A DNA stretch of 36,410 nt. It comes from Gemmatimonadales bacterium. Lineage in GTDB: Bacteria > Gemmatimonadota > Gemmatimonadetes > Gemmatimonadales > GWC2-71-9. Made by a program: the position numbers and the translations under genes. Below the pieces are notes generated by a model. The model made no database searches and was not told the origin of the DNA. It worked only from the letters and a program-made list of their open reading frames with translations. The stretch covers positions 1 through 36,410 of the forward strand of contig JBOHSC010000314.1 in assembly GCA_050733115.1 (NCBI GenBank). The letters run 5' to 3'. Shown here piece by piece: positions 10,172 to 35,327 of this stretch (its first letter is position 1; each line of letters opens with the position of its first letter).

Positions 10172-10174
10172 GGC

Positions 10175-11999: not shown

Positions 12000-12100
12000 T
12001 AGTCCGCACGATCCGGACCCCTCGCTGCAATTCCCCGCAGTGGCCTGCTGCTTGCTCTCCGATTTCCCCAGACACATCGCACAGCATCGTCGTTGATTGA

Positions 12101-20047: not shown

Positions 20048-20219
20048 CGCCTGCGCCCAACCATCGAGCGGCCCGGGCGGAGCACCACAAGACGGTCGAG
20101 CGTGCAGCGAGTCGCCCCCGCCGCCCCTGTGCGCCTCCCGCCACCTCGTGCATCGCCATTGGTGCACGGGCATGGACATTGCCCGCCAAACGTCTCGTCA
20201 CCCTCCCCTCGAGGCAGGC

Positions 20220-20801
20220 ATGAACCGACCGCTCTACGCCCTAGGCTGGAGCTATGTCGCCTTGTGCGGCCTGCTGCTGGCAGGTACGCGGCACCGGCCC
20301 CCGCGCTCGAGCGACGAGCCGCCGGCTCCGGCGCCGCCGTTTCGGGGTGAAGCATCCGAGTGGTTCGCCCAGGTCAAGCCGTTTTGCAACGCTGTGGAGG
20401 TGTCCGTTCGGCAGCAGCAGGCGCCGGCGCCGTCGACGGTGGACGGTGCGGGGTACAGCGCGGCCTGCTACGCCCTGGCGGGAAAGATCGATCAGGCTCG
20501 CTCGGCGATCGATGCGCTCGATCGTGGCGACCGTTCTCGCGCGGCGGGAATCGTCTTCGAGATCGGGCATCCGGTGGCCGATGCCGGGGACGACAAGTCG
20601 GCGGGCCCGATCATGCGGCTCGTGGTGGACTACCAACCCGACAACTACATGGCTCTCTACCATGCCGGAATGTCCGAGTACATCCTGGGAGAGGCCGACT
20701 TCGCGCGCGCCCATCTGAAGCAATTCATGAAGCTCTACCAGAACGAAGACGGCTGGCGGGCCAATGCGCGTGACGTGCTCGGGCGGCTCGGCGAAAAATG
20801 A
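20220..20801 (+). CDS. Small membrane-anchored hypothetical protein, translationally coupled to the downstream kinase
   Basis: The ATG at 20220 gives an N-terminal hydrophobic anchor (LYALGWSYVALCGLLLAG). The helical C-terminal part is possibly TPR-like (NYMALYHAGMSEYILGEADFARAHLKQFMKLY). The stop TGA at 20799-20801 overlaps the kinase ATG at 20798-20800. Confidence 0.6.
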   Translation: MNRPLYALGWSYVALCGLLLAGTRHRPPRSSDEPPAPAPPFRGEASEWFAQVKPFCNAVEVSVRQQQAPAPSTVDGAGYSAACYALAGKIDQARSAIDALDRGDRSRAAGIVFEIGHPVADAGDDKSAGPIMRLVVDYQPDNYMALYHAGMSEYILGEADFARAHLKQFMKLYQNEDGWRANARDVLGRLGEK

Positions 20802-22630
20802 GCGCCTCCCCGTTCCTCGATCCGGGCGCCGTTCTGGCCGGACGCTACGAGATCGTCCGCGAGGTCGGCCGCGGCGGGTACTCGGTGGTCTACCTCGCGC
20901 GCGATCGTACGGTCGGCACCGACGTGGCATTGAAGCTCCTGGTGCCTCCGCCTGCCGCGGCTCAGGTGGCGCGGGAGCGGATGCGGCGCGAGGTGCAGGC
21001 CGTGCGCGGGCTCTCGCACCCCAACATCGTCGCGGTGTTCGATTTTCTCGAGGATGGTCCCTGGAGCTTCATCGTCATGGAGTACGTCGCCGGCCCTGAC
21101 CTGCAGATGCGGGTCCGCGAGCGGGGCCCGCTCGACGTCGAGCAGACCGTGCGGGTGGGACGAGACATAGCGGCCGCGCTGACCATGGCGCACCGCCGGG
21201 GCGTTCTCCATCGCGATGTGAAGCCGCCCAATCTGCTGCTCGACCCCGATGGACGCACCCGGCTCACCGATTTCGGCTCCGCGCGGCTCGATGGACAGCT
21301 CGGTGTAACCGGCACAGGCGCTCTGGCGGGCACGCTCGCGTACACCTCGCCGGAGGTTCTCGCCGGGCGACGGGGTGATGCGCGGGCCGACGTATACGCT
21401 CTCGGGCTGACGCTCTACTTCGCGCTGACGGGTGACCTCCCCGAGCGCCCTTCGCCGCACCTGCCGCCCGTCCCATCCGCCGATGGATTCCGCCCGAGCC
21501 GCGCATCATCGAAAGTTCCCCAATGGCTCGACGACGTGATCGCACTGGCTACGGCCGCCGCCGCCGAGAACCGGTTCCCGACGGCGGTCGCGTTGAACGA
21601 AGCGCTCGCATCGCAGGCGCCGGTTCCTCACGCAGGGACGGCGAATGGCGCGCCCTGCATGCTGTGCGGCGGCCCCGACCCGCTCGCGCTCGGGATCTGT
21701 CCCGCCTGCGGTGGCGGCGCACCGGAGAGCGCCGATACCCTCGTCATCATGGAACGGGAACGTGATCCGGCGGCGCGGCGCGCCGCGGCGCTTCGACTCG
21801 CGGTGGTGATGCCCGATCTGAGTGATACCGATCGCGCCGCCGCGGCGCTCGGTCGGCGCCCACTCTTTCGAGTACCGTCGGTGAGCGCGCCCAGGCTGGT
21901 GGACGAGTTGAGGCATCGTGAGCTGAGCTCACGGGCGCTTCCGGCCGGCCGCGCGCTTGACCTGGTGCCGGCTTCCTATTGGGCACTCGTGGCGGTGGTG
22001 ATCGCCGCTGGCGGCGCCGCAGGGATGATCGCCGCACCTCCGCTACTCGCCACGACACCGCTCGTCGGAGTGCTGCTGGTGCTTGGAGCGCGACGCTCGG
22101 CCCGCACGCCACTCGTGCTGCCGCCGGCGCGGCTCCACGCCCTCGCGCCCGCGGTAGAGCGCGCGGTGGTGCAGACGCTGGCCGAGCTGTCGCCGGGAAC
22201 CGCACGGAACCTGCTCGCCGATCTGGTCAGGATGTGCTCCGCGCTGAGCGCGCGCCTCGAGCGCACCGGCGACGATCGCGGTCTCGGCCCTACGCTCGCC
22301 GAGCTGCTGCAGGCCGGCTGTAGCGCGGCGACCGATCTGGCGCAGCTCGACGAGAATCTGGGCCGTTTCGAGCGTCAGCAGGATCAGCTCGCGTCTCTGC
22401 CGGAAGGATGGCTCGACACACTCGGCCGCTCCGAGCGGACGCGTGATGCGCTGGTACAGCGCCTCCTCGAGGCGATGACGGTCGTGGGGCGCCTGCAGGG
22501 CCAGCAGGCGGCGCTCGCCGGTGAATCCGACGAGACGCTGGCGGAGCTCATCCAGGAGCTCCGGCGCGAGTCGGACGCGCAGGGCGCGGCCGCGCGGGAG
22601 ATGAAGGAGCTTCTGCCCGGCGCGGTCTGA
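20798..22630 (+). CDS. Hanks-type Ser/Thr protein kinase with a CxxC..CxxC zinc-ribbon, TM segments and a C-terminal helical domain
   Basis: G-loop GRGGYSVVY, VALK lysine, catalytic loop HRDVKPPNLL, DFGSA and TSPEVL. The zinc-ribbon-like CMLCGGPDPLALGICPACGG lies at 21656-21709. A hydrophobic stretch is YWALVAVVIAAGGAAGMIAAPPLLATTPLVGVLLVLGA. The ~190-residue Ala/Leu/Arg/Glu-rich tail matches no domain I recognise. Confidence 0.9.
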   Translation: MSASPFLDPGAVLAGRYEIVREVGRGGYSVVYLARDRTVGTDVALKLLVPPPAAAQVARERMRREVQAVRGLSHPNIVAVFDFLEDGPWSFIVMEYVAGPDLQMRVRERGPLDVEQTVRVGRDIAAALTMAHRRGVLHRDVKPPNLLLDPDGRTRLTDFGSARLDGQLGVTGTGALAGTLAYTSPEVLAGRRGDARADVYALGLTLYFALTGDLPERPSPHLPPVPSADGFRPSRASSKVPQWLDDVIALATAAAAENRFPTAVALNEALASQAPVPHAGTANGAPCMLCGGPDPLALGICPACGGGAPESADTLVIMERERDPAARRAAALRLAVVMPDLSDTDRAAAALGRRPLFRVPSVSAPRLVDELRHRELSSRALPAGRALDLVPASYWALVAVVIAAGGAAGMIAAPPLLATTPLVGVLLVLGARRSARTPLVLPPARLHALAPAVERAVVQTLAELSPGTARNLLADLVRMCSALSARLERTGDDRGLGPTLAELLQAGCSAATDLAQLDENLGRFERQQDQLASLPEGWLDTLGRSERTRDALVQRLLEAMTVVGRLQGQQAALAGESDETLAELIQELRRESDAQGAAAREMKELLPGAV

Positions 22631-22679: not shown

Positions 22680-22709
22680 TTGACACGCAAAACTTCGCAC
22701 TGCTGGAAT
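22680..22709 (+). promoter_or_regulatory. Candidate sigma70-type promoter for the ten-gene operon
   Basis: TTGACA (22680-22685), an 18-nt spacer, then TGGAAT (22704-22709), in a visibly less GC-rich 270-bp gap. This is pattern match only. Promoter consensus in this lineage may differ. Confidence 0.3.
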
Positions 22710-22943
22710 GTCGTGGGATCGCCACAACGATCTCCCGATTTCAGCGTCTGCAGGACCCTGCATCGACCATCCTTACCCCTCCCTCAAGCAAGCATCCTTC
22801 CGCGTGTTGCGGCTGCTCCACCACACATCCAGCATCTTCTGCCACCAGCACCTGCGGCTGGCGTACCTCTTGCCCCTTACAGCAGTTGCACAACGGAGAC
22901 AATGGCGAGACTGCAATCCTCTGCAATGGGGCGACAGCGACCG

Positions 22944-24161
22944 ATGCGCGTCATGCTGTTGAACTACGAGTACCCTCCGTATGGCGGCGGCGCCGGTGTA
23001 GCCACCGAGGCGCTGGCGCGCACGCTCGCGTCCCGCGGCGTCACGGTGGACGTCGTGACCGCCGGTGACAAGACGGAGTGCCAGTCCGAGCTGCTCTGGG
23101 ACGGCGACGCGGCCGAAGAGGGGCTACTCAACGTTCACCGGGTGCGGTGCCGCCGCACGTCGGTGCACCAGGCGAGCATGTTCGACGCGGCCAGCTATCT
23201 CTTCGCCGCGCTGCCGGTGATCCGCGAGCTGCTCGAGGCGGAAGAGTACGATACGGTCCACGTCTTCTTCTCGCTTCCGACCGGCGCGCTCATCCCGTTG
23301 CTCAATCTCGGCAAGACGCCGGTGATCGTCTCCCTCAGGGGCTCCGACGTTCCGGGATACGACTCGCACAATCGCAACCTCGAGCGGGCGCACGCACTGT
23401 TGCGTCCCTTTACACGCTGGATCTGGCGCCGCGCCGACCGTGTAGTGCCGGTGTGCGAGAGCCTTGGCCAGATGGCGGCGCGCACCCTGCCGAGCCTGGA
23501 CTACACGGTGATTCCCAACGGTGTGGACCTCGCGCGCTTTCACCCTCCGGCGTCGCGGCGGAACCGGCGCTGCGGACCAGTCCGCTGCATTGCCGTGGCG
23601 CGACTGGTGGAGCGGAAGGGGCTCACCGACCTGATACGCGCCATCGGCCTGCTGGAGCGAGGAAGCTACGAGCTCGAGATCGTCGGCACCGGGCCGGACG
23701 AGCATGTGCTTCGCGAGCTGGTGGCTGGCCTCCGGCTCGACGGCTTCGTGAAGTTCAGCGGTTCGCTCGACCGTGCCACCGTCGCCCGCCGGTACCGTGA
23801 CGCGGATCTCTTCACTCTCGCCTCCGTCGAGGAGGCGTTCGGCAATGTGTTCGCCGAAGCGCTGGCCTGCGGCCTTCCCGTCGTGGGCAGTGCGGTGGGC
23901 GGCATCCCCGACCTCGTCCAGCATGGCCGCAACGGCCTGCTGGTCCCGCCTCGTGATCCGTTCGCGCTTGCCACCGCCATCCGGCACCTCGGAGAGAATC
24001 CCGCGCTTCGCGCCGAGATCGGCCGCCGCAATCGGGCCCAGGCGGAGGCGACTCTTTCCTGGGATCGGATCACTACCCGGTACCTGTCGCTCTACAACGG
24101 CCTCCGCCGCCGCACTCCAGCACGTTCCCGCCTCGCCGAGCTGCCCTCGAGCTCCTGGTGA
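22944..24161 (+). CDS. GT4-family (GT-B) glycosyltransferase
   Basis: MRVMLLNYEYPPYGGGAGVATEALARTL is a typical GT4 N terminus. The E-x7-E region is EEAFGNVFAEALACGLPVVGSAVGGIPDLV. Alternative in-frame ATGs lie at 22902 (GGAG 3 nt upstream) and 22926. The ORF-track start at 22680 is rejected. Confidence 0.9.
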   Translation: MRVMLLNYEYPPYGGGAGVATEALARTLASRGVTVDVVTAGDKTECQSELLWDGDAAEEGLLNVHRVRCRRTSVHQASMFDAASYLFAALPVIRELLEAEEYDTVHVFFSLPTGALIPLLNLGKTPVIVSLRGSDVPGYDSHNRNLERAHALLRPFTRWIWRRADRVVPVCESLGQMAARTLPSLDYTVIPNGVDLARFHPPASRRNRRCGPVRCIAVARLVERKGLTDLIRAIGLLERGSYELEIVGTGPDEHVLRELVAGLRLDGFVKFSGSLDRATVARRYRDADLFTLASVEEAFGNVFAEALACGLPVVGSAVGGIPDLVQHGRNGLLVPPRDPFALATAIRHLGENPALRAEIGRRNRAQAEATLSWDRITTRYLSLYNGLRRRTPARSRLAELPSSSW

Positions 24162-25459
24162 GCGCGACGCTCGGTTTCTGGCTCGCGGCGGATGGGTTTC
24201 AGCTGCTCCGGGCTCCCCGACTGGCGCCCGACGCGCTCCAGTCTCTCTCGCGCCGCCGGCTCGCCCGCCTGCTCGCGGCAGCCGCGAGGACGGAGTTCCA
24301 TCGAGAGCGGCTCGAAGCGATCGGCCTCGACTCGAGGAGTTCGCTGCTCCACCTCGATCCCGAGGGCGTGCTTGCCTCGCTCGCTCCGGTCGGCAAGGCG
24401 GAGCTTCGGGCGGCGGGAACAGGAATGCTGCGTGGCGGGCGGATTCGGCCGGAGTGGATGTCTTCGAGCTCTTCGGGCTCGACCGGCGAGCCGTTTCGCG
24501 TCTACTACGACACGCGCGCCTGGGCCACGCTCAAGCATCTCGTGAAGCTCCGCGCCAGGGCGGCGTGTGGGGTCCGGCCGACCGATCGCGTGGCGCTCCT
24601 CGACGCGATCCCGCCGAGGCAGCGGCAGGGATTCGTTCGCGGCAGCCGCGTTGCCCGGATCAGCGTGCTGCAGCCGGGCGCGGCGATGGCCGAACAACTC
24701 GCCGCCTTCCGGCCCGACGCCGTCTACGGTCTTCCCTCGGCGCTGCTCGAAGCGGCGGCGGCGCTGCGCGCGCAGGGCCGGCAGCTCGTCATCGGGCGGG
24801 TGTTCACCAGCGGGGAGCTTCTGCGGCCGGCCGTTCGCGAGGCAATCGCGGACGCGTTTCAGGCGCGGGTCTTCGACATCTACGGAAGCTCGGAGACGAA
24901 GGAGATCGCGTGGGAGTGCGCCGAGGGCGGCATGCACGTGAATGCCGACGTGATCCGCCTCGAGGTACTCGACGATGAGGGCCGGCCCCTCCCCGACGGC
25001 GTCGAGGGAAATCTGGTGGCCACCTCGCTCGTCAATCACGCGATGCCTCTGCTGCGCTACCGGCTCGGCGATCGGGGCAGCATGCGTTCACACGCCTGTC
25101 CCTGCGGGCGGGCCTTTCCGCTGCTCGGCGTCGTGACCGGTCGCGCGGTCGATGTCCTTGTGCTCTCCGACGGGCGGCGGGTATCACCCTACGCTCTCAC
25201 CTGCGCCCTCGAGCGGGAAGAGTCACTGCTGCGTTACCAGGTGAGCCAGCTCGATCCGGCACGCCTGCGGGTGCGAGCCATTGTGGAGCCCGGGGCGCAG
25301 CGCAGCGCCGTTACCGATCGGGTGCGGGCGCTGATGCGGGCGGAAGTCGCTCCTTTCCTCGAAACCGACGTCGAGTTCGTGGACCATCTTCCCACCGGAC
25401 CGCGAGCCAAGTTCAGTGTCGTCCAGCCGCTGGCGGTGCCGGCGCAATCCCTCGGTTGA
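24158..25459 (+). CDS. Adenylate-forming enzyme, phenylacetate-CoA ligase (PaaK) / coenzyme F390 synthetase / CapK-like family, copy 1
   Basis: The GTG start overlaps the GT4 stop (GTGA at 24158-24161). The phosphate-binding motif SSSSGSTGEPF is at 24461-24493. The ~430-residue length and the N-terminal RRLARLLAAAARTEFHRERL pattern are typical of the family. Confidence 0.85.
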   Translation: MSATLGFWLAADGFQLLRAPRLAPDALQSLSRRRLARLLAAAARTEFHRERLEAIGLDSRSSLLHLDPEGVLASLAPVGKAELRAAGTGMLRGGRIRPEWMSSSSSGSTGEPFRVYYDTRAWATLKHLVKLRARAACGVRPTDRVALLDAIPPRQRQGFVRGSRVARISVLQPGAAMAEQLAAFRPDAVYGLPSALLEAAAALRAQGRQLVIGRVFTSGELLRPAVREAIADAFQARVFDIYGSSETKEIAWECAEGGMHVNADVIRLEVLDDEGRPLPDGVEGNLVATSLVNHAMPLLRYRLGDRGSMRSHACPCGRAFPLLGVVTGRAVDVLVLSDGRRVSPYALTCALEREESLLRYQVSQLDPARLRVRAIVEPGAQRSAVTDRVRALMRAEVAPFLETDVEFVDHLPTGPRAKFSVVQPLAVPAQSLG

Positions 25460-25473
25460 GGCGATAGCTCACG

Positions 25474-26442
25474 ATGATCCAGATACCGTCCGGCCGCGCC
25501 TTCCCGCGTGATCACTCCGGCGGGCGAGGGCGCGCGCGTCCGTTGCCCCATCCGCTCTCGCCGTACGAGGATCTGGTCGTGAACTTCTGCCCGACCGGAA
25601 TGATCCCGACAAAGGCGATGACGCCCCATGTGCCGGTGTCTCCGTCGGAGGTGATCGACCAGTCGTGCTCGGCGCTCGAGCGGGGCGTGGCCATCGTCCA
25701 TCTGCACGCGCGCGAAGCCGACGGCTCCCCGACGTATCGCGCCGAGATCTACGAGGAGATGATCCTCGGCATCCGCGGACACTTTCCCGACGCGATCACC
25801 TGCGTGAGTTGCAGCGGCCGGAACTTCCCCGAGCTCGAGCGCCGGAGCGAGGTACTGGAGCTGACCGGCGCCGCGCGCCCCGACCTGGCCAGTCTCACGC
25901 TTACCACGCTCGACTTTCCGACGGGAACGAGCCAGAACGCCCCCGACATGGTCATCGCGCTCGCGGAGAAGATGGTGGCAAAGGGGATCAAGCCGGAGCT
26001 CGAGTGCTTCGACTACGGGATGATCAATGCCGCGAACATGCTGATCGGGAAAGGGATGCTCGGAGAGCCGCCGTACTATTTCAACCTGCTGCTCGGCTCG
26101 CGCTACTCCGTGCCGGCGACGGCGAAGCACCTGTCCGGGATGATCGACGACCTGCCCGACGATTCGGTCTGGTCGGCGGCGGGGATCGGACTCTTCCAGT
26201 TGCCGATGAACACACTCGCCATCGCGATGGGCGGCCACACCCGGGTGGGTCTCGAGGACAACATCTTCCACGGATTCGATCGGGGCGAGCTGGCCACCAA
26301 TCAGGGCCTGGTCGAGCGCGTCGCGGACTTGAGTGAAACCTTCGGGAGGAAGCTGGCGACCCCGGCGCGCGCCCGTGCGCTGCTCGGCGTGGCGCCCTCG
26401 GCCGCGGCGATCGACCGCGTCCCCACCGCGGGGGCGCGATGA
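25474..26442 (+). CDS. BKACE-family enzyme (3-keto-5-aminohexanoate cleavage enzyme-like, DUF849)
   Basis: TIM-barrel start VVNFCPTGMIPTK. Zn-ligand H-x-H in AIVHLHARE (25699-25707). GGHTRVGLEDNIF contains the conserved Glu (26254-26256). The ~35-residue N-terminal extension is uncertain. Confidence 0.85.
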   Translation: MIQIPSGRAFPRDHSGGRGRARPLPHPLSPYEDLVVNFCPTGMIPTKAMTPHVPVSPSEVIDQSCSALERGVAIVHLHAREADGSPTYRAEIYEEMILGIRGHFPDAITCVSCSGRNFPELERRSEVLELTGAARPDLASLTLTTLDFPTGTSQNAPDMVIALAEKMVAKGIKPELECFDYGMINAANMLIGKGMLGEPPYYFNLLLGSRYSVPATAKHLSGMIDDLPDDSVWSAAGIGLFQLPMNTLAIAMGGHTRVGLEDNIFHGFDRGELATNQGLVERVADLSETFGRKLATPARARALLGVAPSAAAIDRVPTAGAR

Positions 26443-27782
26443 TCATCCGTGGGCCGGACCTCCTCGGAACGGTCAGCGCCATTCAGCGGCACATACGCGC
26501 CGATCGCGCCCAGCTCCAGACGTTTCAGGACGCCAAACTGCGGCGACTGCTCGTGCATGCCTACGAGCACGTGCCCTACTACCGGAAGCTGTTCGACCGG
26601 CAACGGCTCCATCCGCGCCACATCCGCGGCACGATCGATCTCGAGCTCATTCCGATCACGACCAAACAGGATCTCCGTGACCTTCCCCCTTCCGAGATCG
26701 TGACGAAGGGGGTCGATCCCTGCTCCCTCGTGTCGGTGCGCACCAATGGCTCCACGGGAGAACCGTTCGTCGTCCGCCGGACGGGGGTCGAGCAGGGCTT
26801 TCACACGATGTTCCGCCAGCGCGCGTACGAAGCGTTCGGCCTTGGGTTGCGCGGCCGTATCGCCGCGATAAGCTATCCGCGCCCCCGCCACCCGAGGGAC
26901 ACCAAGGTGGTGGGCCGCTGGCTGAGCGCCATGGGGGTGCACCCGACGCTCCGGATCGACGGCCTCCAGGATCCCGAGGCGATCGCCGAGCAGCTCGAGG
27001 CGTTCCAGCCCGATCTCATCACCGCGCTACCGGGCATGCTGCACCGCGTGGCCGATCACCTCGTCGACTCGGGAAAGGGCCGTGTCCGCCCGCGAATCGT
27101 GGTAGTGGGAGGTGAGGTGTTGACGCCGCTGGTCCGGCGCCGCCTGATCGAGGCCTTCGGCGTGGCGCCGCTCCAGACCTACGCCAGCCACGAGTTCCAG
27201 CTGCTGGGGTGGGAGTGCCGCACCCTCGGCGGCATCCACACCTGCGACGACGGGGCGATCGTCGAGGTGTTGAACGAGGGACGTCGGGCGCTGCCCGGCG
27301 AGGAGGGAGAGGTGGTTGCCACCAACCTTCACGCCTATGCGATGCCGTTCATTCGCTACCGCCTCGCCGATCTGGTCACCCGTGGCGCCGAGACGTGCGC
27401 ATGCGGGCAACCCTTCTCCGTGATCGGCGCGATCCGGGGACGGATGATCGACTACTTCCCGCTGCCGAACGGCAGGGTCGTGCATCCGTACCAGATTCTC
27501 CAGAGCCTCCAGCCGGGCGACGATACCTGGATCCGTCAGTGTCAGCTACTGCAGGATCGCCCGGACCGGGTGATCATGAGCATCGTGGCCGCCGGTGCAC
27601 CTGCGCCGGAGCTCGAGCGCCGCATCGTTGGCTCGGTGCAGCCCCTGCTGGGACCGGGAGTCGAATTCCAGATCCGGATCGTGGACGAGATCCCGCTCGA
27701 AGCCGGCGGCAAGTTCCGTCACGCGCGCTCGCTGATGGCCTCGGACTACGAGGCGGCGCCCGCGATCGCGCTGAATGGTTAG
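26439..27782 (+). CDS. Adenylate-forming enzyme, PaaK / F390 synthetase / CapK-like family, copy 2
   Basis: ATGA overlap with the BKACE stop (26439-26442). Motif TNGSTGEPF lies at 26742-26768, starting at codon 102 as in copy 1. The N-terminal pattern is KLRRLLVHAYEHVPYYRKLF. Confidence 0.85.
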   Translation: MIIRGPDLLGTVSAIQRHIRADRAQLQTFQDAKLRRLLVHAYEHVPYYRKLFDRQRLHPRHIRGTIDLELIPITTKQDLRDLPPSEIVTKGVDPCSLVSVRTNGSTGEPFVVRRTGVEQGFHTMFRQRAYEAFGLGLRGRIAAISYPRPRHPRDTKVVGRWLSAMGVHPTLRIDGLQDPEAIAEQLEAFQPDLITALPGMLHRVADHLVDSGKGRVRPRIVVVGGEVLTPLVRRRLIEAFGVAPLQTYASHEFQLLGWECRTLGGIHTCDDGAIVEVLNEGRRALPGEEGEVVATNLHAYAMPFIRYRLADLVTRGAETCACGQPFSVIGAIRGRMIDYFPLPNGRVVHPYQILQSLQPGDDTWIRQCQLLQDRPDRVIMSIVAAGAPAPELERRIVGSVQPLLGPGVEFQIRIVDEIPLEAGGKFRHARSLMASDYEAAPAIALNG

Positions 27783-29088
27783 CCTCCTCGAGCGGCTCGA
27801 AGGGGGCACGGCTCCCTGGCTCTTCGTCCACAGTGTCGAGCGCGCTTCCGAGCGCGCCCTCGTGCTGGCGCGTCCTCAGGACATCGTCTGCGTCAGCGAC
27901 GAGGTCGAGCCGGCCTATCTCTCCTATCTCGCCGAGCTGGGGCTGGGCCCGGCCCCGGACCGGGTCGTGCCGATGTCGCGCTTCGGCGACCGGTCGCCGG
28001 GGCGAGCGCTCTGGGCCCGATTGGCGGAAAACACCGAAGCCCTGCGTGCGGTCGGGTCGCTCGTGCGCGAGGGTGGCCCCTCCCGGCTCCATCCATTCAT
28101 CGCCTCGCGCGGCTCTTTCGCTCTGGCCGCGGCACTCGAGATCGCCGCCGACACCGAGGTTCGCGTGGCCGGCGGAGACCCCGCGATCGTAGAATACGCC
28201 GACCAGAAGCACAACATTCGCGAACGCGCCATCGCCCTCGGCATTCCGGTGGCCGACGGCGAGGTGGTCGAGCTTGCGGTGGCGGGCGGGCGACGGAAGC
28301 GCGACTATGACGCACTGCGCCATGCCGTGGAGCGGAGGCTGGCCCAGACGGGGCGCGTGCTGGTACGGGGATCGCACGGCACCGGCGGGTCGGCGACGCA
28401 CATCGTGGGCACCGGCGGGACCGACGTCCACGGACTGGTGCGGAACCTCTCCGATCATGTCGAGAATCGGGTCTACCTGGTCGAGACGATGGTCGCGGCA
28501 ACGGTGTCTCCCAACGTGCAGCTCCACATCTCACCGGCCGGCGGGCCGATCACCTGCGTCGGCGTGACCGACCAGCGTTGGGAGCGCCGGCTGGTGAATG
28601 GAGGAAATCTCTTTCCATCGGCGTCCCACCTGACGGCCGCGATGGTGGAGTGGTCGTACCGGATGGCGGGGTGGCTGCAGGAGGCGGCATACTCCGGGCT
28701 GCTGGGACTCGACTTCGTCGAGTACGCCGATCCGGGCACCGGGGAACTCCGCGCCTTCCTCGCGGAGGTGAATCCCCGGGTGGCCGGCGACACTTATCCA
28801 TTGGCGCTCTTCGAGCGGCTCAACGCCGCCCAGCGGCGAGCCGGGCGTCCGGAGAGCGGCGCCTTCGTATCGGGCACCATCGAAACCCGGCCGCGCCGAT
28901 TCGCAGAATTCCACCGTGCCGCCGACCATCTTTTCTATTCACCCGCTACCGGGTGCGGAGTCGTGCCGCATCACGTGGGGTCGCTCGGCCGCGGAAAGTG
29001 CGGCGTAGTAGTCTTCGGGCCGACGCGAGACGCCGTACTGCGCTCATATGGGGAGCTGCAGAGCTGGTGCAGGCGGGAGGGACAATGA
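27775..29088 (+). CDS. ATP-grasp superfamily carboxylate-amine ligase with an N-terminal pre-ATP-grasp-like region
   Basis: It overlaps the previous gene by 8 nt (ATGGTTAG). ATP-grasp landmarks are DQKHNIRERAIALGIPVADGE, RVLVRGSHGTGGSATHIV, VYLVETMV and GLLGLDFVEY...FLAEVNPRVAG. Confidence 0.7.
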   Translation: MVSLLERLEGGTAPWLFVHSVERASERALVLARPQDIVCVSDEVEPAYLSYLAELGLGPAPDRVVPMSRFGDRSPGRALWARLAENTEALRAVGSLVREGGPSRLHPFIASRGSFALAAALEIAADTEVRVAGGDPAIVEYADQKHNIRERAIALGIPVADGEVVELAVAGGRRKRDYDALRHAVERRLAQTGRVLVRGSHGTGGSATHIVGTGGTDVHGLVRNLSDHVENRVYLVETMVAATVSPNVQLHISPAGGPITCVGVTDQRWERRLVNGGNLFPSASHLTAAMVEWSYRMAGWLQEAAYSGLLGLDFVEYADPGTGELRAFLAEVNPRVAGDTYPLALFERLNAAQRRAGRPESGAFVSGTIETRPRRFAEFHRAADHLFYSPATGCGVVPHHVGSLGRGKCGVVVFGPTRDAVLRSYGELQSWCRREGQ

Positions 29089-30104
29089 CTTCCGCGGTCA
29101 TGCCGCTCCCGGCACGGCGATCGCTGCTCGCTGCCGTCGAGGAGCGCTTTCTCGTGCGGAGCTACGCGTCGCCGAGAGCGGGGGCGTGGGTCGCGGTGCA
29201 CGACGCGCTGGCGTTCCCGTTCCAGATGCGTGGAGATATGCGTCGTTCGACGGTCCGCACCGACGAGGGAACACTGCGAGTGGTAGAAATCGGACGCGGC
29301 AAGCACACGGGGCCGTTCTGTGCCCGGCTCCTCGGGTCGCGAGCGCACGGTGCGGGCGACGGCGCGCGGCCGCTTTGGAGCCCGGCCGCGCTGGCCGACG
29401 TCGACGCCGATCTCGTCCTGGCGGAGATTCATCGCTGGATGGCACCCCGCTTCCGGCGCGCCGGGTGGCTGGTCGTGCCCGACTCGATAAGGTGGCATGG
29501 CGATCTCACGCGCTGCCCGCCCTCGCGCGCCACGCCGAGCCTCAAGGCCGATCTGAAAAAGGTGAGCCGGTATGGGTACACCCTGGAGTCCGCCGGCACC
29601 TCACAGGACTGGGCGGAGTTCTACGGCAGCATGGTGGTGCCACAGGCGCGCGTTCGTTTCGGGGAAGCAGCGTGGATTCCGAGTGAACGGCTGCGGAGGG
29701 AGCTGGCGGCGCGTGGCACACTCCACTTCATCCTTCGCGACGGAGCCCCGGTGGCGGGTATCTGCTCGGTGCGCACCGGCTCGACACTCTGGCTTCCGGT
29801 GATGGGGCTCCGGCAGAGCGATGCGAACCTGCTCAAGGAGGGTGTCTACTCCGCCGCCTTCTCGCTCCTGTTCGACTGGGCAGCCAGGCAGGGATGCACG
29901 CAGGTGGACGCCGGCCGCACGTCGGCGTTCACACTCGACGGCGTACATCGGTTCAAACGAAAATGGGGGCTCGAGCCCGTGGCCGATCCGCTGAGCCACC
30001 TGATTGCCGTACGCGCCGGCTCTACGGCGCTGCGCGCGTTCGCGCACCAGCCCGTCCTCGTCGACCGCGGGAGTGGGCTGGCCGCATTTCCGGAGGCCGA
30101 GTGA
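29085..30104 (+). CDS. GNAT-fold acyl/aminoacyl transferase, FemAB/CelD-like (Acetyltransf_6-type)
   Basis: ATGA overlap at 29085-29088. The C-terminal half (HFILRDGAPVAGICSV...LLKEGVYSAAFSLLFDWAARQGCTQVDAGRT...GVHRFKRKWGLEP) follows the FemAB/CelD-like pattern, including the ..FK.KWG.. signature. Confidence 0.65.
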   Translation: MTSAVMPLPARRSLLAAVEERFLVRSYASPRAGAWVAVHDALAFPFQMRGDMRRSTVRTDEGTLRVVEIGRGKHTGPFCARLLGSRAHGAGDGARPLWSPAALADVDADLVLAEIHRWMAPRFRRAGWLVVPDSIRWHGDLTRCPPSRATPSLKADLKKVSRYGYTLESAGTSQDWAEFYGSMVVPQARVRFGEAAWIPSERLRRELAARGTLHFILRDGAPVAGICSVRTGSTLWLPVMGLRQSDANLLKEGVYSAAFSLLFDWAARQGCTQVDAGRTSAFTLDGVHRFKRKWGLEPVADPLSHLIAVRAGSTALRAFAHQPVLVDRGSGLAAFPEAE

Positions 30105-30784
30105 GCGTCCGCAGCCGACTCCTGCGTTTTGCCGGCCACTGGCGCGGCTTTCCTGGCGAGGCACGACGTGCCTATCGGGTGGGCGGCATGAGCGAGCTAC
30201 GGCAGCTCGTTGCCGACCGGTCGGTGCATCTCCTCTTCCGCCGGGACCGCATGGTGGTGGTGGCGCAGGCACTCGACTCGGTGCGCGACGCCGCCACGCC
30301 TGAAGGGGTGACGATCACCAGCGGCACCCGAGAGGACATCGGCCTCCTCACTGAGCTGGCGAGCGCCCGCGACATCCAGCTCTTTCGCGGACGGCACGAC
30401 GCGGGCCGCACCTGTCTCCTTGCATGGCGTAACGGGCGGCCGATCGGATATACGTGGCTCAGTGAGCGGATGGGGCCGGACGTGACCGTATGCACGCTCC
30501 CACTGCCCCCCAACGCTGCCTACCTCTACGATCTCTTCGTCCTTCCCGCGGAGCGGAGCTCCGGCGTCGGCTCGGCGCTGGTGAGCGCCCGGCTCCGGCT
30601 GGCCCGCGATCGTGGATTCACCGAGGGGTGGCGGATGATCTCGGTCGGGAATCATGCGTCGTTCAGGACGGTCGAGAAGACCCGTGGCCCGGGGACGAGA
30701 GTCGTGGGCGAGATGCGGTATCTGAAGGTGCTCGACAGGATCTACCCCCGATTCACGCCATGCAGCACGACCGGGGCCCAGTGA
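30101..30784 (+). CDS. GNAT-family N-acetyltransferase
   Basis: GTG start in a GTGA overlap (30101-30104); an alternative ATG is at 30189. The acetyl-CoA binding motif A is YDLFVLPAERSSGVGSALVSARLRLARDRG (about 30533-30620). Confidence 0.75.
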   Translation: MSVRSRLLRFAGHWRGFPGEARRAYRVGGMSELRQLVADRSVHLLFRRDRMVVVAQALDSVRDAATPEGVTITSGTREDIGLLTELASARDIQLFRGRHDAGRTCLLAWRNGRPIGYTWLSERMGPDVTVCTLPLPPNAAYLYDLFVLPAERSSGVGSALVSARLRLARDRGFTEGWRMISVGNHASFRTVEKTRGPGTRVVGEMRYLKVLDRIYPRFTPCSTTGAQ

Positions 30785-31914
30785 CCGCGGGCGTGCTCGG
30801 TGCGGCCGACCGCCTGACCGGCGAGGAGTGGAACGCGCTCGCCCGGCGCGGCTTCTCCCTTCACCGGTGGCACGCGGCGGCAGAGGCGAGCGGGTGGCGA
30901 CCCCGCCACGTCGTGGTGCGCGACGGCCAATCGGTGCTGGCAATCGTGCCCGCATACCTCCTCGACGGCGGCGCCGCGCTCGACATTCATGATCGCTGGC
31001 TCGGACCGCTCGGCCCCGCAATGGCGGCAGCCGGCCTCCGTTTTCGACCGACGATCTCCGTGGGCGCGCCGTGCTCCACCACCAGCTCGTGGCTTGGCGA
31101 TCTCGAGGCGCTCCCCGAGACGGTGATCGAACAGGTCTTCGCGGCGCTGGAGGCTCAGGCGAGGGAGGACGGGGCACGCGCCGTGGTATGGCCGTTCGTG
31201 GATGAGCGGCACCAGCACCTTCGTGAGGTGGCACGCCGCGGGGGATATCTTGACTACTATGCGGGCTCGACCGCGCGGGTTCCGGTCGCATGGCCCTCGT
31301 TCGACGATTACCTGGCGAGCCGCTCGAAGAGTCTCCGCCGCACCGTCCGCGCCGAACTCAAGTGGCTGGACGAGCGTGCTATCCGCACTGCCATGACTCC
31401 CGACTTCCGGGCGCAGGCTCCCGCTATGGCGGCGCTGTACGCCTCCACCAGTGAAGATCACCGCGGCCGCGCGGCGGCCGTGCCCTCGATTCTTTTCACG
31501 CACCTCGCCGAGCAGCCCACCCCGGGGCTCTGGGGGCAGCTCACCTATCACGACGACCGACTCGTGGGTTCCAGCATCTCGGTCGCCGCCAGCGGCGTGA
31601 TGGAGGGAACGTTCGCGGCGTTCGCGCCGGGATTCCTGGCCGGGCCGGTATATCACAACGACCTGGTGTACGAGCCGCTGCGCGTGGCATGCGCCGAGGG
31701 GATGACGGCTCTCGATCTGGGGCCGACGGCGCTCTATCCCAAGGTGCTGCGAGGCGGCCGCTTGGTGCGCCGGCGCACCCTCGTCCGGGGAACCTCACTC
31801 CTCGTACAAGGGGCGCTGCGCATGCTCGGACCAGTGGTTGCGCGCCGGACCGAGTGGAAGGAGCGGCGCGCTCTCGAGGCGCTCGGCACACTGGAGACGC
31901 TGACCGACGCATGA
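30781..31914 (+). CDS. FemAB-like / DUF482-type GNAT-fold protein ('peptidoglycan biosynthesis/recognition' family)
   Basis: GTG at 30781 forms a GTGA overlap with the upstream stop; an in-frame ATG at 30760 is the alternative. The patterns EEWNALARRGFSLHRWHAAAEASGWRPRHVVV..., FDDYLASRSKSLRRTVRAELKWL and LDLGPTALYPKVLRGG resemble that family. The assignment is from memory. Confidence 0.6.
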   Translation: MTAGVLGAADRLTGEEWNALARRGFSLHRWHAAAEASGWRPRHVVVRDGQSVLAIVPAYLLDGGAALDIHDRWLGPLGPAMAAAGLRFRPTISVGAPCSTTSSWLGDLEALPETVIEQVFAALEAQAREDGARAVVWPFVDERHQHLREVARRGGYLDYYAGSTARVPVAWPSFDDYLASRSKSLRRTVRAELKWLDERAIRTAMTPDFRAQAPAMAALYASTSEDHRGRAAAVPSILFTHLAEQPTPGLWGQLTYHDDRLVGSSISVAASGVMEGTFAAFAPGFLAGPVYHNDLVYEPLRVACAEGMTALDLGPTALYPKVLRGGRLVRRRTLVRGTSLLVQGALRMLGPVVARRTEWKERRALEALGTLETLTDA

Positions 31915-33353
31915 CCAGCATCGATCTGTCGATCCCGGCGCCACGCCGGGCCAGCCTGCTCCAGCGGATTGCCGCCTATTCGGCGAGCCGCGGTGTCACC
32001 GAGGGGTTGCTCGGCCTGCGCGGCATTCTGCTCGCCACGGTGCTGGGCCCGGCCGGATTCGGTGCGTGGGCGCTCCTCCGGCTCTCCATGCGATACTCGA
32101 TGTTCGGCGCGCTTGGTGTCTTTCGCGGGCTCGAGCTGGAGTCGCTCGCCGCCCGCCGGCGCGACGAGCCGGGTGAGGGCGCTCCCGCCGGGGCGGCGCT
32201 GGGGTTCATTCTCGCGGAATCGGGGACGCTGGCGGGCATAGCGCTCGTCGCGTCGTTCGTAGTGCCCGATCCGTCGCATGCCATGGTCCTCAGAGGCTTC
32301 GCGGCGGCGGTGGTGTTTGAGCAGGCGTACACCTATGCCCTCGTCTGGACCCGGGTGCGGATGACGCTCCGCCGTTACGCTTCGCTCGAAATGGTCAACG
32401 CCGCGCTGCAACTCGTCTGCGCGGTCTCGCTGGCGGCGGTGTGGGGGCTTCCCGGGGCGTTCGGCGGGATGGCGCTGGCCAGCGCCCTGGCGCTGCTGCT
32501 CGCCGCGAGCTGGGTCGAGTTCCGGCCCGCGATTCGCATCGCGCCGCTGAGGCGGTTGCTCGGCGTGGGCATCCCGCTCACCGTCTCGATGCTCCTCGCC
32601 ACCTCCCTCTACACCGCCGACCGCTGGATCGTGGCCGCGTTCGGCGGTGCGACGCTGCTCGGCTACTACGCGCTTGCTGCCTCGGTGGCCGACGTCACCG
32701 GATCGTTCGCCTGGGTGGTGCGAACCGTCGTATTCCCCGATGTGTACGGCCACGCGCAGTCGTCGGGCGCGGTTGCGGCGCTCAATCGGCATTTCGACCG
32801 GGCCGTGCTCCCCTTTGCGCGACTCTATCCTCCGCTCCTCGGCGCGCTGGCTTGCCTCCTCGGTCCCGTGGTGGCGCTGGCAGTGCCGCAGTATCTCCCC
32901 GCCATCGCCCCTGCGAAGATCTTCCTCGTGAGTGGTGCCGCGGCAGGTCTCGTGAGCCTGGCCGCCGTCGGTGCGGTCGCGGCAGGCCGGCATCGCAGTC
33001 TGCCCTTTCTCTCGGCCGGCGGCCTGGTCGCGAGCGTCACCCTTTCACTCCTCGCGATCCGACTGGGCCGGGGTCTCGAGGCAGTGGCGGGGGCGGCGTT
33101 CACCGGCCAGGTCCTCTACGCGGCGGGGATTCTGTGGCTTACCTGCCGAGAGGGTCAGCGCACCGACACCGCCGCCTTCCTTCGGAGTGCGCTCCTGCCG
33201 CTCGGATGGTGCATGACGTCGGTGCTGCTGGTGGGCCGGCTCTTTCCCGGCAACGACCTCGCATCGGCGGCGCCTGCCTTTCTCGTCTACCTGGTGTTGA
33301 TCCTTCCGCTTGCGCCGGTAATCAGACGCGAGTGGGCGGCGGTCCGGAGGTAG
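31911..33353 (+). CDS. MOP-superfamily oligosaccharide flippase (Wzx-like polysaccharide biosynthesis protein)
   Basis: ATGA overlap at 31911-31914. It is a ~480-residue protein of a dozen or so hydrophobic helices. The N-terminal GLLGLRGILLATVLGPAGFGAWALL pattern is typical of Wzx/PST flippases. Confidence 0.8.
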   Translation: MTSIDLSIPAPRRASLLQRIAAYSASRGVTEGLLGLRGILLATVLGPAGFGAWALLRLSMRYSMFGALGVFRGLELESLAARRRDEPGEGAPAGAALGFILAESGTLAGIALVASFVVPDPSHAMVLRGFAAAVVFEQAYTYALVWTRVRMTLRRYASLEMVNAALQLVCAVSLAAVWGLPGAFGGMALASALALLLAASWVEFRPAIRIAPLRRLLGVGIPLTVSMLLATSLYTADRWIVAAFGGATLLGYYALAASVADVTGSFAWVVRTVVFPDVYGHAQSSGAVAALNRHFDRAVLPFARLYPPLLGALACLLGPVVALAVPQYLPAIAPAKIFLVSGAAAGLVSLAAVGAVAAGRHRSLPFLSAGGLVASVTLSLLAIRLGRGLEAVAGAAFTGQVLYAAGILWLTCREGQRTDTAAFLRSALLPLGWCMTSVLLVGRLFPGNDLASAAPAFLVYLVLILPLAPVIRREWAAVRR

Positions 33354-33356
33354 CCG

Positions 33357-34205
33357 ATGGCGCGCGCCCGGGAGAGACTCTCGGTGGTGGTACTCACTTC
33401 GATTCCGCTCGGAATCGAAGTCACCGCGGCGCTGAGAGCGTTGCCCGAGGTGGGTCAGCTGACCCTTTTCTCCGCCCCGGCGATACCGCACCAGACGACG
33501 GCCTCGTTGATCCGGACCACTTGGCGCCACGAGGGAATGCGAGGCCTTCTCGATGCCGCGCTCCGGAGGGCACGGAAGGCGGCACGTCTCCAGGAGAACC
33601 GCAGTCCAGCGGCGCTGGCCGCACGGCGTTGTCCCAACGTCGCCCACTTCCCGATGGCCCAGTTTCATTCCGATGCGTGCCGCGCCCGAATCTCCGGGCT
33701 CGCTCCCGATCTCGGCGTGGTGGTGGGCACCCACGTCCTGAAGGGCGATCTCTTCACCATCCCACGCCTCGGCTGCATTAATCTCCACCTCGGCGCCGCG
33801 CCGGAGTTTCGCGGCTCGTCACCGGGGTTCTACGAGCTGCTGGAAGGGGTGCCCGAGGCCGGCGTCACCATCCATCGCGTGACCGATACACTGGACGGTG
33901 GCGACATCCTCCTTCAGGAGCGCTTCCCCCTCGAGACCGCCCCCGATGGCGACCCCGTGGACTATCTGCGCCGATACCTGGCCGAGGTGCTCTGCCCGAA
34001 CGGGGTGCGCATGATGGCGGCGGCGGTTGCGGCGATGGCCCATGGAACGCAGACCGAACGGGTCCAGGATGCCGCCGCCGCCCGCACCTACCGGCGAGCC
34101 ACATGCGCCCTCAAGCGCGAGTTGAGGCAGCGGGTCGCCGAACGGAGGAAGGGCACGCTGCAGGCGCCGGTCGGGAGGTTGACATACGGCTCGACCGAGC
34201 CGTAA
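33357..34205 (+). CDS. Formyltransferase-family protein (Fmt/PurN/ArnA-N-like)
   Basis: GGAGG at 33346-33350, 6 nt before the ATG. Catalytic Asn/His are in CINLHLGAAPEFRG (Asn 33780-33782, His 33786-33788). Asp is in VTIHRVTDTLDGGDILLQ. Confidence 0.85.
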   Translation: MARARERLSVVVLTSIPLGIEVTAALRALPEVGQLTLFSAPAIPHQTTASLIRTTWRHEGMRGLLDAALRRARKAARLQENRSPAALAARRCPNVAHFPMAQFHSDACRARISGLAPDLGVVVGTHVLKGDLFTIPRLGCINLHLGAAPEFRGSSPGFYELLEGVPEAGVTIHRVTDTLDGGDILLQERFPLETAPDGDPVDYLRRYLAEVLCPNGVRMMAAAVAAMAHGTQTERVQDAAAARTYRRATCALKRELRQRVAERRKGTLQAPVGRLTYGSTEP

Positions 34206-34433
34206 GTTCAGTTCAGGCGACCCAGTGCGAGAAATGCCGATGCCGATATCTCACCCAGTGATGTCCCTTTGCCCTTGTAGCTGTCCTGTCCGCATGCGGA
34301 CCGGAGGGTAGGCGCAGCCGCACATTGACGTACCATGTTTTCCAGTCGATGGCCGCGTCCTCCTACCGGAGCTCGCGGCCGATTTCATCTCCAGTACTGA
34401 TGTTCCATTGCAAGCATGCCTGAGGAGGCTTCC

Positions 34434-35327
34434 ATGGGAGCAGCACAAGCGGTCAGGCCGGTGGTTCCGATCGACCAGCGGGGGTATGTACATCCCGAGG
34501 TCCTGGTCTCGACCGACTGGGCAGCCGCCCATCTCAACGACCCGAAGGTCCGCCTGGTCGAATCGAATGAAGACATCCTGCTCTACGATACGGGGCACAT
34601 CCCGGGAGCGGTCAAGCTCGACTGGACCACCGACCTGAACGACTCTGTCATCCGCGACTACATCGACCGCGACCGGTTGCAGAAGTTGCTGCGGTCGAAG
34701 GGGATCAACGACGACACGACGATTGTGCTTTACGGAGACAAGAACAACTGGTGGGCTACCTACGCCCTCTGGGTGCTTCAGCTCTTCGGAGTGGAGAACG
34801 TGAAAATCCTCGATGGCGGGCGCCTGCGCTGGGCGGAGGAAGGACGGAAGCTCACCACCGACACGCCGGCCTACGCCGCGGGCAACATCACTCTCGGGGA
34901 GCGTGACGACACGAAGATCCGCGCCTTCCGCGAGGAGGTGCTGGACCATTTGAAAAAGAAGGGACAGCTGGTGGACGTGCGGAGCCCCGAGGAGTTCAGC
35001 GGCCAGCGCACGCACATGCCCGAGTACCCGCAGGAGGGAACGCTGCGCGGCGGTCACATTCCGGGCGCCAAGAGCATTCCCTGGGCCAAGGCGGTGGACC
35101 CCGACACCCATACTTTCCGGTCCGCGAGCGACCTGAGGAAGCTGTACGAGCAGGACAACAGCCTGAACAAGAAGGAAGAGACGATCGCCTACTGCCGGAT
35201 CGGGGAGCGCTCGTCGCATACGTGGTTCGCGCTCACCTACCTGCTCGGCTTCGACAACGTGCGGAACTACGACGGGTCGTGGACCGAATGGGGCAATGGA
35301 GTGCGCCTGCCGGTGGAAAAGTCGTAA
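34434..35327 (+). CDS. Thiosulfate/3-mercaptopyruvate sulfurtransferase (tandem rhodanese domains)
   Basis: The ATG at 34434 is preceded by GAGGAGG (34422-34428). The active-site loop is [13 protein letters not shown]. The overall pattern ([20 protein letters not shown]..., [11 protein letters not shown]) is like actinobacterial CysA/SseA-type sulfurtransferases. Confidence 0.9.

Follow-up and report, generated by a model that had tools for sequence, protein, structure and literature searches.

In Campylobacter jejuni, Cj1438/HS19.11 fuses a glycosyltransferase to an ATP-grasp amidoligase and amidates the glucuronate of the capsule (PMC11800379). Here we describe a ten-gene operon (g1 to g10; positions 22902–34205, + strand) whose core follows the same two-activity logic, a glycosyltransferase and an ATP-grasp amide ligase that would likewise act on a surface glycan. 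It lies on a 36,410-bp contig of 63–73% GC (the window, by which we mean the whole of this stretch) from a metagenome-assembled genome (MAG) of an uncultured soil bacterium of the Gemmatimonadales. The two systems are likened by activity logic and not by sequence between g5 and Cj1438C: Cj1438 combines a GT2 glycosyltransferase with a TupA-like ATP-grasp domain in one polypeptide, whereas here a GT4 glycosyltransferase (g1) and a PGM1-like ATP-grasp ligase (g5) are encoded by separate genes. The closest described relatives of g5 are PGM1 (pheganomycin; 3wvq/3wvr), BesA (8yi6) and related Streptomyces ligases (8ynd), with which it shares a Pre-ATP-grasp domain, the fold and an E-x-N Mg site; by analogy, g5 would be expected to join a carboxylate and an amine via an acyl-phosphate. 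It differs from these ligases in that identity is about 18–20%, in its setting in a GT4 operon of Gemmatimonadales and not in an actinomycete natural-product cluster, and in that no precursor-peptide gene was noticed. We give roughly even odds (a probability of about 0.5) to the reading that the operon encodes a sigma-54-controlled, modular pathway, independent of nonribosomal peptide synthetases (NRPSs), that places amide-linked acyl or aminoacyl groups on the glycosyl unit of an envelope glycoconjugate.

Comparison of related loci supports a composition of a two-gene core plus lineage-specific tailoring modules, not an obligate ten-part machine. A pattern scan derived from the g5 alignment and run on one genome per species recovered 58 loci (numbered L001 and so on), homologue look-ups added more, and presence and absence were tabulated for 27 complete syntenic intervals, all from Gemmatimonadales. 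There the locus is invariably flanked by a DUF5916 gene on one side and a rhodanese gene on the other. The GT4 and ATP-grasp genes are present in 27/27 complete loci, while the other eight genes come and go by lineage. Six loci carry g1 and g5 only, with or without an upstream kinase gene, and intermediate sets include g1-g5-MurF-like, g1-g4-g5, g1-g4-g5-MurF-like, and g1-g4-g5-g8. A further type without the BKACE gene (g3) reads g1-g2-(second ATP-grasp)-g4-g5-g7-g9. Nine-gene versions miss either the Wzx-like transporter (g9) or the formyltransferase (g10), and the complete ten-gene set is restricted to the closest relatives of the window, with the full order kept in L001, L006, and L007; a search for the same set and order in other genomes had been proposed with an earlier, sequence-only reading of the window. 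Several lineages have g6-g8-g7 in place of g6-g7-g8. The transporter is missing in L016, L017, L063, and every minimal locus, and the formyltransferase in L012, L062, L034, and L054; L063, which reads GT4-PaaK-CapK-ATP-grasp-MurF-like-Fem-GNAT, has no transporter, BKACE gene, or formyltransferase. Many otherwise rich loci do without the transporter, and many without the formyltransferase. Flipping a lipid-linked sugar and capping by N-formyl, both of which figured in the sequence-only reading, are therefore lineage-specific extras and do not define the system. The further idea of that reading, that the ten proteins make up one stoichiometric machine, is at odds with the two-gene loci, the intermediate subsets, the altered order of g6 to g8, and the extra ligases found in some lineages. 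Locus content tracks lineage, as seen in bands of g5 identity, and does not vary among near-identical genomes, so we claim no serotype-like hypervariability.

Two kinds of additional ligase occur at these loci. The accessory Mur ligase is MurF-like, with 205–211 bits on the MurF model TIGR01143 against 37–54 bits for cyanophycin synthetase, and its N-terminal domain is missing. In the Gemmatimonadales clade at ~48% identity its gene lies 3′ of the ATP-grasp gene (approximately 11311–12594 in L003/L019; 8696–9982 in L063), and a MurF-like ligase is also found in Nitrospirota (L036, 4557–5864). An ATP-grasp enzyme paired with a MurF-like ligase recalls the pair Ddl/MurF and, in its logic, cyanophycin synthetase. 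The second kind is an unrelated ATP-grasp gene of CPSase_L_D2 type (carbamoyl-phosphate-synthase-like), which is inserted 3′ of g2 in L016 (6411–7640) and L034 (7469–8716) and stands in the place of the BKACE gene in L034 and L054.

A sigma-54-type −24/−12 promoter element, TGGCGTACCTCTTGC (22859–22873, + strand), precedes g1; it has the form TGGC-N7-TTGC (TGGCAC-N5-TTGC), with canonical spacing, GG at −24, and GC at −12. In 35/37 distinct loci, minimal and full, the 130 nt before the GT4 gene contain the pattern TGGY-N7-TTGC, against a background of 0.024 per 330 nt. Within the window alone the sigma-54 pattern has three matches where 0.9 are expected, which is not significant by itself, and the element is convincing because it is conserved across loci rather than because of this count. 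Since it stands before g1 in minimal and full loci alike, the gene set appears to be one regulated unit headed by g1. An alignment of 13 intergenic regions revealed two further conserved blocks, an imperfect palindrome TGTCGT...ACAACGA (box 1, 22709–22730, + strand), a candidate site for an enhancer-binding protein, and a TGCA-N6-TGCA palindrome (box 2, 22749–22762, + strand), a candidate activator site; both share with the promoter the 270-nt region upstream of g1. From these elements, operon expression is predicted to require RpoN together with an enhancer-binding protein; the scanned genes of the window yielded no Sigma54_activat domain, and no enhancer-binding-protein gene was seen there. 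We also considered a ribosomally synthesized and posttranslationally modified peptide, with PGM1-style ligation to a ribosomal product, and set it aside: the conserved blocks 5′ of g1 are promoter-like motifs, and no small open reading frame (ORF) was seen among them in a search that was not exhaustive. A second TGGC-N7-TTGC match (12041–12055, + strand) lies ~100 nt upstream of a gene for a 1037-aa Big_1/Kelch/galactose-oxidase-like protein (12157–15270) and may be a sigma-54 promoter or a chance match.

The ten co-oriented genes are supported as one real operon unit with a single conserved promoter in front. Each of the ten + strand ORFs is in frame with a single terminal stop. Their nine junctions comprise six 4-nt ATGA or GTGA overlaps (g1/g2, GTGA, 24158–24161; g3/g4, ATGA, 26439–26442; g5/g6, ATGA, 29085–29088; g6/g7, GTGA, 30101–30104; g7/g8, GTGA, 30781–30784; g8/g9, ATGA, 31911–31914), one 8-nt overlap (g4/g5, 27775–27782), and gaps of 14 nt (g2/g3, 25460–25473) and 3 nt (g9/g10, 33354–33356). 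Our recheck of ORFs and junctions thus reproduced exactly the ten same-strand coding sequences and all nine junction coordinates that had been read from the sequence before. Third-position GC of 0.80–0.89 backs the coding frame of six genes and covers only these, since the remaining four lie within longer ORFs. The start of g1 is ambiguous between 22902 and 22944, of which the latter would yield 405 aa and match the orthologue calls (405–406 aa). L001 repeats the junction pattern at most junctions (4-nt overlaps, the 8-nt overlap, and gaps of 15 and 3 nt), with two that differ in its gene calls, and from this recurrence the arrangement appears to be inherited rather than due to chance. Close packing is not unusual for the host genome, because equally tight junctions occur elsewhere in the window (a 4-nt overlap at 20798–20801 and a 3-nt gap at 10172–10174). 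A scan for terminators and sigma-70 promoters gave nothing above chance, which speaks neither for nor against a single transcript, and an Rfam scan of the whole window returned zero matches.

Family assignments for the ten proteins come from Pfam and NCBIfam profile searches, and folds from AlphaFold2 models of g5 and g8 searched with Foldseek; these searches back all ten family names given by the sequence-only reading, g6 marginally. The first invariant core gene, g1 (22902–24161), encodes a retaining GT4 glycosyltransferase (Pfam Glyco_trans_1_4, Glycos_transf_1, and Glyco_transf_4; E ~1e-33) with an EX7E motif at residues 311–319. The second, g5 (27775–29088), encodes a predicted PGM1/BesA-type ATP-grasp carboxylate-amine ligase (Pfam PreAtp-grasp, PF18604, 42.2 bits) that keeps the Mg site as E331-V-N333. 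A sequence search of the PDB gave no match for g5, and the top Foldseek matches of its model (pLDDT 87.7) are 8ynd, BesA, and PGM1, with TM scores of 0.72–0.76. Directly 5′ of the ATP-grasp gene in Gemmatimonadales, Nitrospirota, and a deltaproteobacterial MAG lies g4 (26439–27782 in the window), which encodes a PaaK/CapK-like adenylate-forming ligase with the motifs NGSTGEP, YRLAD (at 307), and GGKF (at 423); PaaK structures match it at E 5e-24, and its orthologues bear a CapK_C domain. It is the second such ligase of the operon: the accessory g2 (24158–25459), a paralogue 32% identical to g4 and mostly paired with g3, matches the NCBIfam DVU_1553 family and PaaK and has a SGSTGEP P-loop at 106, a YRLGD hinge at 301, and a C-terminal Lys at ~418.

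The most conserved protein of the locus (76–90% identity) is the accessory g3 (25474–26442), a Zn-dependent TIM-barrel enzyme of the BKACE/DUF849 family (PF05853; 261.8 bits). It aligns with Kce (2y7d) at E 2e-44, including the metal ligands H76-L-H78 and GLEDN (at 259) and the catalytic Glu177. Phe179 occupies the column of the catalytic Tyr145 of Kce, and a Tyr is found two residues downstream. The same column holds Phe in BsfD (Phe166) and in the uncharacterized DUF849 structures 3no5, 3fa5, and 3chv. Phe at the Tyr site of BKACE enzymes has been tied to noncanonical chemistry, with the flavophos enzyme BsfD departing from the canonical retro-Claisen reaction (PMC12871164).

Three accessory genes encode GNAT-fold proteins. 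The product of g6 (29085–30104) is weakly assigned to Acetyltransf_6 (BioF2/Fem-like GNAT; 24.1 bits against a Pfam cut-off of 22); it matches TIGR03019 at E 6e-4, its profile has no significant match to g8 or to the PDB, and homologues of 23–29% identity also occur in Nitrospirota. g7 (30101–30784) encodes a single-domain GNAT N-acyltransferase (Acetyltransf_1, E 1.8e-11) with the acyl-CoA motif RSSGVG. g8 (30781–31914) encodes a tandem-GNAT transferase of the Pfam family FemAB_like (PF04339, 49.2 bits), which itself appears to be uncharacterized. No match was found for g8 in a sequence search of the PDB, and its model (pLDDT 87.1) is nearest in fold to the aminoacyl-tRNA-dependent peptide synthases Sbb17/Sba18, FemX, and the synthase domains of MprF (TMq 0.53–0.59). 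It thus resembles Fem/MurM, MprF, and Sbb17/Sba18 in tandem-GNAT fold and Pfam family, and differs from them in that the TM scores reach only this range and identity is 10–18%. Because acetyl-CoA-dependent tandem GNATs (2wpw and 7q3a) are also among the fold matches, the fold does not decide between aminoacyl-tRNA and acyl-CoA as the donor of g8. A check of the ATP-grasp and GNAT-fold proteins by structure, suggested with the sequence-only reading, accordingly gave an ATP-grasp peptide ligase fold for g5 and a Fem/MprF-type tandem GNAT for g8.

The last two genes are likewise accessory. g9 (31911–33353) encodes a polytopic membrane transporter of the MOP superfamily, PST family (Wzx-like), with ~12–14 hydrophobic segments and matches to Polysacc_synt (33.6 bits, cut-off 28.2) and Polysacc_synt_3 (31.7 bits, cut-off 23). 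g10 (33357–34205) encodes the catalytic domain of an N10-formyl-tetrahydrofolate-type formyltransferase (Formyl_trans_N) without the C-terminal domain of Fmt, and its structural matches are Fmt, ArnA, and sugar N-formyltransferases (E 1e-13 to 1e-5). Like the ArnA-type and sugar N-formyltransferases WlaRD, VioF, and Rv3404c, it keeps an Asn-His-Asp catalytic set (N142-x-H144 ... D180). The setting differs from theirs in that the operon has no amino-sugar aminotransferase or dehydratase, and the formylated amine could sit on an amino acid and not on the sugar.

These families suggest a pathway in which a sugar is attached to an acceptor and then decorated. The retaining GT4 enzyme g1 would transfer the sugar from a nucleotide sugar, and g5 would activate a carboxylate as acyl-phosphate for coupling to an amine; candidate sources of this carboxylate are the sugar, the aglycone, and an incoming amino acid. 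As the partner of the ATP-grasp enzyme, g4 may adenylate a second carboxylate for amide or thioester formation. With acetyl-CoA, g2 and g3 could provide or reshape an unusual short acyl or beta-keto/beta-amino acyl group, either by canonical beta-keto acid cleavage to acyl-CoA and acetoacetate or, given Phe179, by BsfD-like acetyl transfer. The Fem-like GNAT-fold proteins g6 and g8 would add aminoacyl or acyl residues, with aminoacyl-tRNA as a possible donor for g8, while g7 would N-acylate from acyl-CoA, g10 would N-formylate a remaining free amine, and g9 would move the finished unit across the cytoplasmic membrane. The product is most likely a decorated envelope glycoconjugate in the form of a glycolipid or short lipid-linked glycan unit, not a Wzy-type polymer. 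The data show the gene families and folds, the split into core and accessory genes, the conserved promoter, and the envelope setting in other phyla; chemistry is established at the level of families, and from it we infer the substrates, the sequence of reactions, the lipid anchor, and where in the cell the product ends up. A gene set dominated by NRPS-independent amide-bond and acyl-transfer chemistry, as the sequence-only reading had it, stands; the lipid linkage and flipping that it attached to this chemistry are putative, and the lipid-linked carrier is assumed, with no priming, polymerase, chain-length, or export gene in the operon or window.

Outside Gemmatimonadota, the g4-g5 pair is found in the context of envelope lipid and glycan genes. 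Homologues of g5 with 30–43% identity occur in Nitrospirota, Brocadiaceae, Verrucomicrobiales, and a deltaproteobacterial MAG, and the adjacency of g4 and g5 is the unit conserved across phyla. In Nitrospirota, the pair belongs to a recurring module of methyltransferase, PaaK-like, PaaK-like, g6-like, MurF-like ligase (in some loci), AsnB-type amidotransferase, PaaK-like, and ATP-grasp genes, sometimes with further PaaK-like and AsnB genes (L047, 2061–14481; L045, 1644–16163; L036, 49–21295). Its AsnB protein scores 531 bits on the XrtA/PEP-CTERM amidotransferase model TIGR03108. The flanks of the module in L047 encode a class-V aminotransferase, a nucleotidyltransferase, a CDP-alcohol (phosphatidyl)transferase of inositol-phosphate type, and an HpnL/LPG_synthase_TM flippase-like protein; those in L036 encode two GT2 glycosyltransferases, an amine-oxidase-type flavoprotein, an ArnT-like PMT_2 glycosyltransferase, and an NAD-dependent sugar epimerase. 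Taken by itself, this Nitrospirota module constitutes an uncharacterized system for tailoring envelope lipids or glycans. The g4-g5 pair of the deltaproteobacterial MAG is followed by a PGA_cap (CapA-like) gene. There, g4-like and g5-like regions share a single 1672-codon stop-free frame (L052, 1096–6114), which may reflect either a genuine fusion or an artefact caused by high GC.

We favor an envelope glycoconjugate because the enzyme families and their catalytic motifs are intact, with g5 in the fold of ATP-grasp peptide ligases and g8 in that of Fem, MprF, and aminoacyl-tRNA-dependent peptide synthases; because g1 and g5 are fixed in every complete locus at one chromosomal position, to which some lineages add extra amide ligases; because a sigma-54 element heads the set in 35/37 loci; because the g4-g5 pair sits among envelope lipid and glycan genes in other phyla; and because g9 is a PST-family polytopic membrane protein and Cj1438 provides a precedent. 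Several observations weigh on the other side. Neither the operon nor the 36-kb window contains a priming phosphoglycosyltransferase, Wzy, WaaL, chain-length, or outer-membrane export gene by Pfam. The transporter is missing from many loci, all minimal ones included, so that export is not intrinsic to the core. The closest solved relatives of g1, BshA and MshA, glycosylate small soluble acceptors, and the nearest structural relatives of g5 belong to soluble natural-product pathways. Lacking the catalytic Tyr, g3 may have a chemistry that differs from canonical BKACE, and the assignment of g6 is marginal. Finally, the best NCBIfam matches of all ten proteins fall under the equivalog cut-offs, so that no protein has a named orthologue.

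The locus fits none of the Wzx/Wzy, XrtA/PEP-CTERM, and bacillithiol systems, yet shares kinds of enzyme with all three. With respect to Wzx/Wzy systems, g9 is a PST-family flippase by assignment, though its gene is absent in many related loci, and it is the sole polytopic membrane protein; no Wzy, Wzz, or Wza domains occur in the window, and no WbaP/WecA-type priming phosphoglycosyltransferase was found by Pfam in the ten genes or the window flanks, though one could lie elsewhere in the genome. The exopolysaccharide loci of XrtA/PEP-CTERM systems likewise place predicted amide and acyl tailoring enzymes (FemAB-family proteins, AMP-forming ligases, and AsnB-type amidotransferases) beside GT4 enzymes, and g1 and g6 weakly match the corresponding models (128.8 bits against 409 for stp2, TIGR03088, and 19 against 260 for TIGR03019). 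In contrast, BKACE, a PGM1-like ATP-grasp enzyme, and a formyltransferase are not part of the XrtA/PEP-CTERM system, and the window showed neither an exosortase nor a PEP-CTERM protein.

The main rival, to which we allot a real but clearly smaller share of probability, is a soluble low-molecular-weight glycoside of the bacillithiol/mycothiol type or a compatible solute. The GT4 enzyme would then act on a small hydroxy acid or polyol, the ATP-grasp enzyme would ligate an amino acid, accessory enzymes would acylate or formylate, and the MOP protein, where present, would export the metabolite. The best solved relatives of g1 fit this picture: they are BshA (3mbo/2jjm/5d00), followed by MshA and PimB, with sucrose-phosphate synthase and a pterin glucosyltransferase also among the matches. 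g1 aligns with the BshA structures over the full length (E 1e-25 for 3mbo/2jjm; also 5d00), but its score on the BshA model TIGR03999 is well under the equivalog cut-off (121.9 against 273.7 bits), and there are no BshB- or BshC-like genes at the locus. Taken as a whole, a BshA-matching GT4, amino-acid ligation, and GNAT acylation are formally parallel to MshA, MshC, and MshD; the locus differs from both thiol pathways in that it has no deacetylase, BshC, or MshC, its ligase is an ATP-grasp enzyme, and a Wzx-like transporter and Fem-like enzymes are added. A soluble product would also suit the resemblance of g5 to the soluble natural-product ligases PGM1 and BesA and the two-gene minimal loci without transporter or lipid-carrier genes. 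Against this, the richer loci recruit a PST/Wzx-type transporter and not a typical metabolite exporter, and the context of g4-g5 across phyla is one of envelope glycan and lipid genes. The two-domain rhodanese gene that follows the operon (34416–35327, + strand) is an invariant same-strand downstream neighbor, 74–91% identical across loci, which counts in favor of this rival, but it behaves as a flank: it stays whatever the operon contains and begins 210 nt after g10. On these grounds we set it aside as an operon member, though it may be co-transcribed.

A poly- or oligo-amino-acid chain is improbable. By this account the ATP-grasp enzyme, with a MurF-like ligase where available, would build a cyanophycin-, poly-gamma-glutamate-, or teichuronopeptide-like chain on a glycosyl primer. 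An ATP-grasp enzyme together with a Mur-type ligase does follow the domain logic of cyanophycin synthetase, and a MurF-like gene comes after g5 in the Gemmatimonadales clade at ~48% identity and is also present in Nitrospirota; however, the window itself has no Mur-type ligase, and the accessory protein scores far higher as MurF than as cyanophycin synthetase. The PGA_cap gene after g4-g5 in the deltaproteobacterial MAG points the same way, but this lone context is anecdotal, and no PgsB- or PgsC-like genes were seen.

We consider modification of a peptidoglycan precursor (lipid II or UDP-MurNAc-peptide) marginally less probable still. Fem-like, ATP-grasp, and MurF-like enzymes would here add residues to the stem or bridge or change those present, with the MOP protein as flippase for the product, as is conceivable from the fold of g8, nearest to FemX and related aminoacyl-tRNA transferases, from the MurF-like accessory ligase, and from the MOP superfamily, which includes the lipid II flippase MurJ. 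Set against these similarities, the invariant GT4 and PGM1-like ATP-grasp enzymes have no part in peptidoglycan assembly, many loci are without Fem-like genes, g9 matches the Polysacc_synt (PST/Wzx) models, and sigma-54 control with lineage-specific content is unlike housekeeping wall synthesis. Last, an obligate stoichiometric complex of ten proteins that builds a capped peptide-like substituent on a lipid-linked sugar, as originally envisaged, is very unlikely: 8/9 junctions are overlaps or gaps of no more than 3 nt, a spacing that would allow translational coupling and that recurs in L001, but start/stop overlaps are common in high-GC operons, equally tight junctions join unrelated genes elsewhere in the window, and the presence/absence matrix contradicts such a complex, with relatives that do without 8/10 genes or differ in how g6, g7, and g8 are ordered.

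The operon is best classed as a putative, uncharacterized glyco-amide tailoring locus, with an invariant core of a GT4 and a PGM1-like ATP-grasp enzyme, a conserved sigma-54 promoter, and lineage-specific modules as its new features. Literature searches, which covered BKACE enzymes together with glycosyltransferases, CapK together with polysaccharides, FemAB in PEP-CTERM systems, PF04339/DUF482/COG3146, and ATP-grasp enzymes of Gemmatimonads, brought up no matching characterized cluster, in agreement with the sequence-only reading, which likewise could name none. The chemistry is probably new whether the product is an envelope glycoconjugate or a soluble glycoside; the theme of uncharacterized glycan-tailoring clusters is a familiar one and common in MAGs. 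A bolder and more tentative proposal, which we consider less likely than not, is that the GT4 and ATP-grasp pair defines an undescribed family of sigma-54-regulated envelope glycoconjugates in soil Gemmatimonadales: a sugar bearing a short pseudopeptide of neither ribosomal nor NRPS origin, built combinatorially by ATP-grasp, CapK-like, MurF-like, and aminoacyl-tRNA-dependent Fem-like ligases, containing a beta-keto or beta-amino acyl unit derived from BKACE and capped by N-formyl, while a related amide-ligase toolkit would decorate envelope lipids and glycans in Nitrospirota and other phyla.

To our knowledge, Gemmatimonadales are abundant in soil and almost nothing is known of their surface chemistry. 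A fixed chromosomal position, a two-enzyme core, and interchangeable tailoring genes make the locus a tractable natural experiment in NRPS-free amide decoration of sugars. It would give first functional contexts to PF04339 FemAB_like proteins, CapK-like ligases, BKACE enzymes without the catalytic Tyr, and PGM1-like ATP-grasp enzymes outside actinomycetes, and it points to sigma-54 control of envelope remodeling in Gemmatimonadota. Should the product instead be a soluble glycoside, it could be a new redox or osmoprotective metabolite.

Other genes of the window lie outside the operon. Upstream, a 217-aa protein with no family match (20148–20801, + strand) overlaps by 4 nt a 610-aa Ser/Thr kinase with a central membrane segment (20798–22630, + strand), and the pair is possibly a regulatory neighbor rather than a core member. 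We set the kinase aside as a member of the system, as it follows the DUF5916 gene in a subset of loci only. Farther upstream, a 734-aa fused trehalose-6-phosphate synthase/phosphatase, OtsA-OtsB (7967–10171, + strand), lies 3 nt ahead of a gene for a DsbA-like thioredoxin and appears unrelated to the operon.

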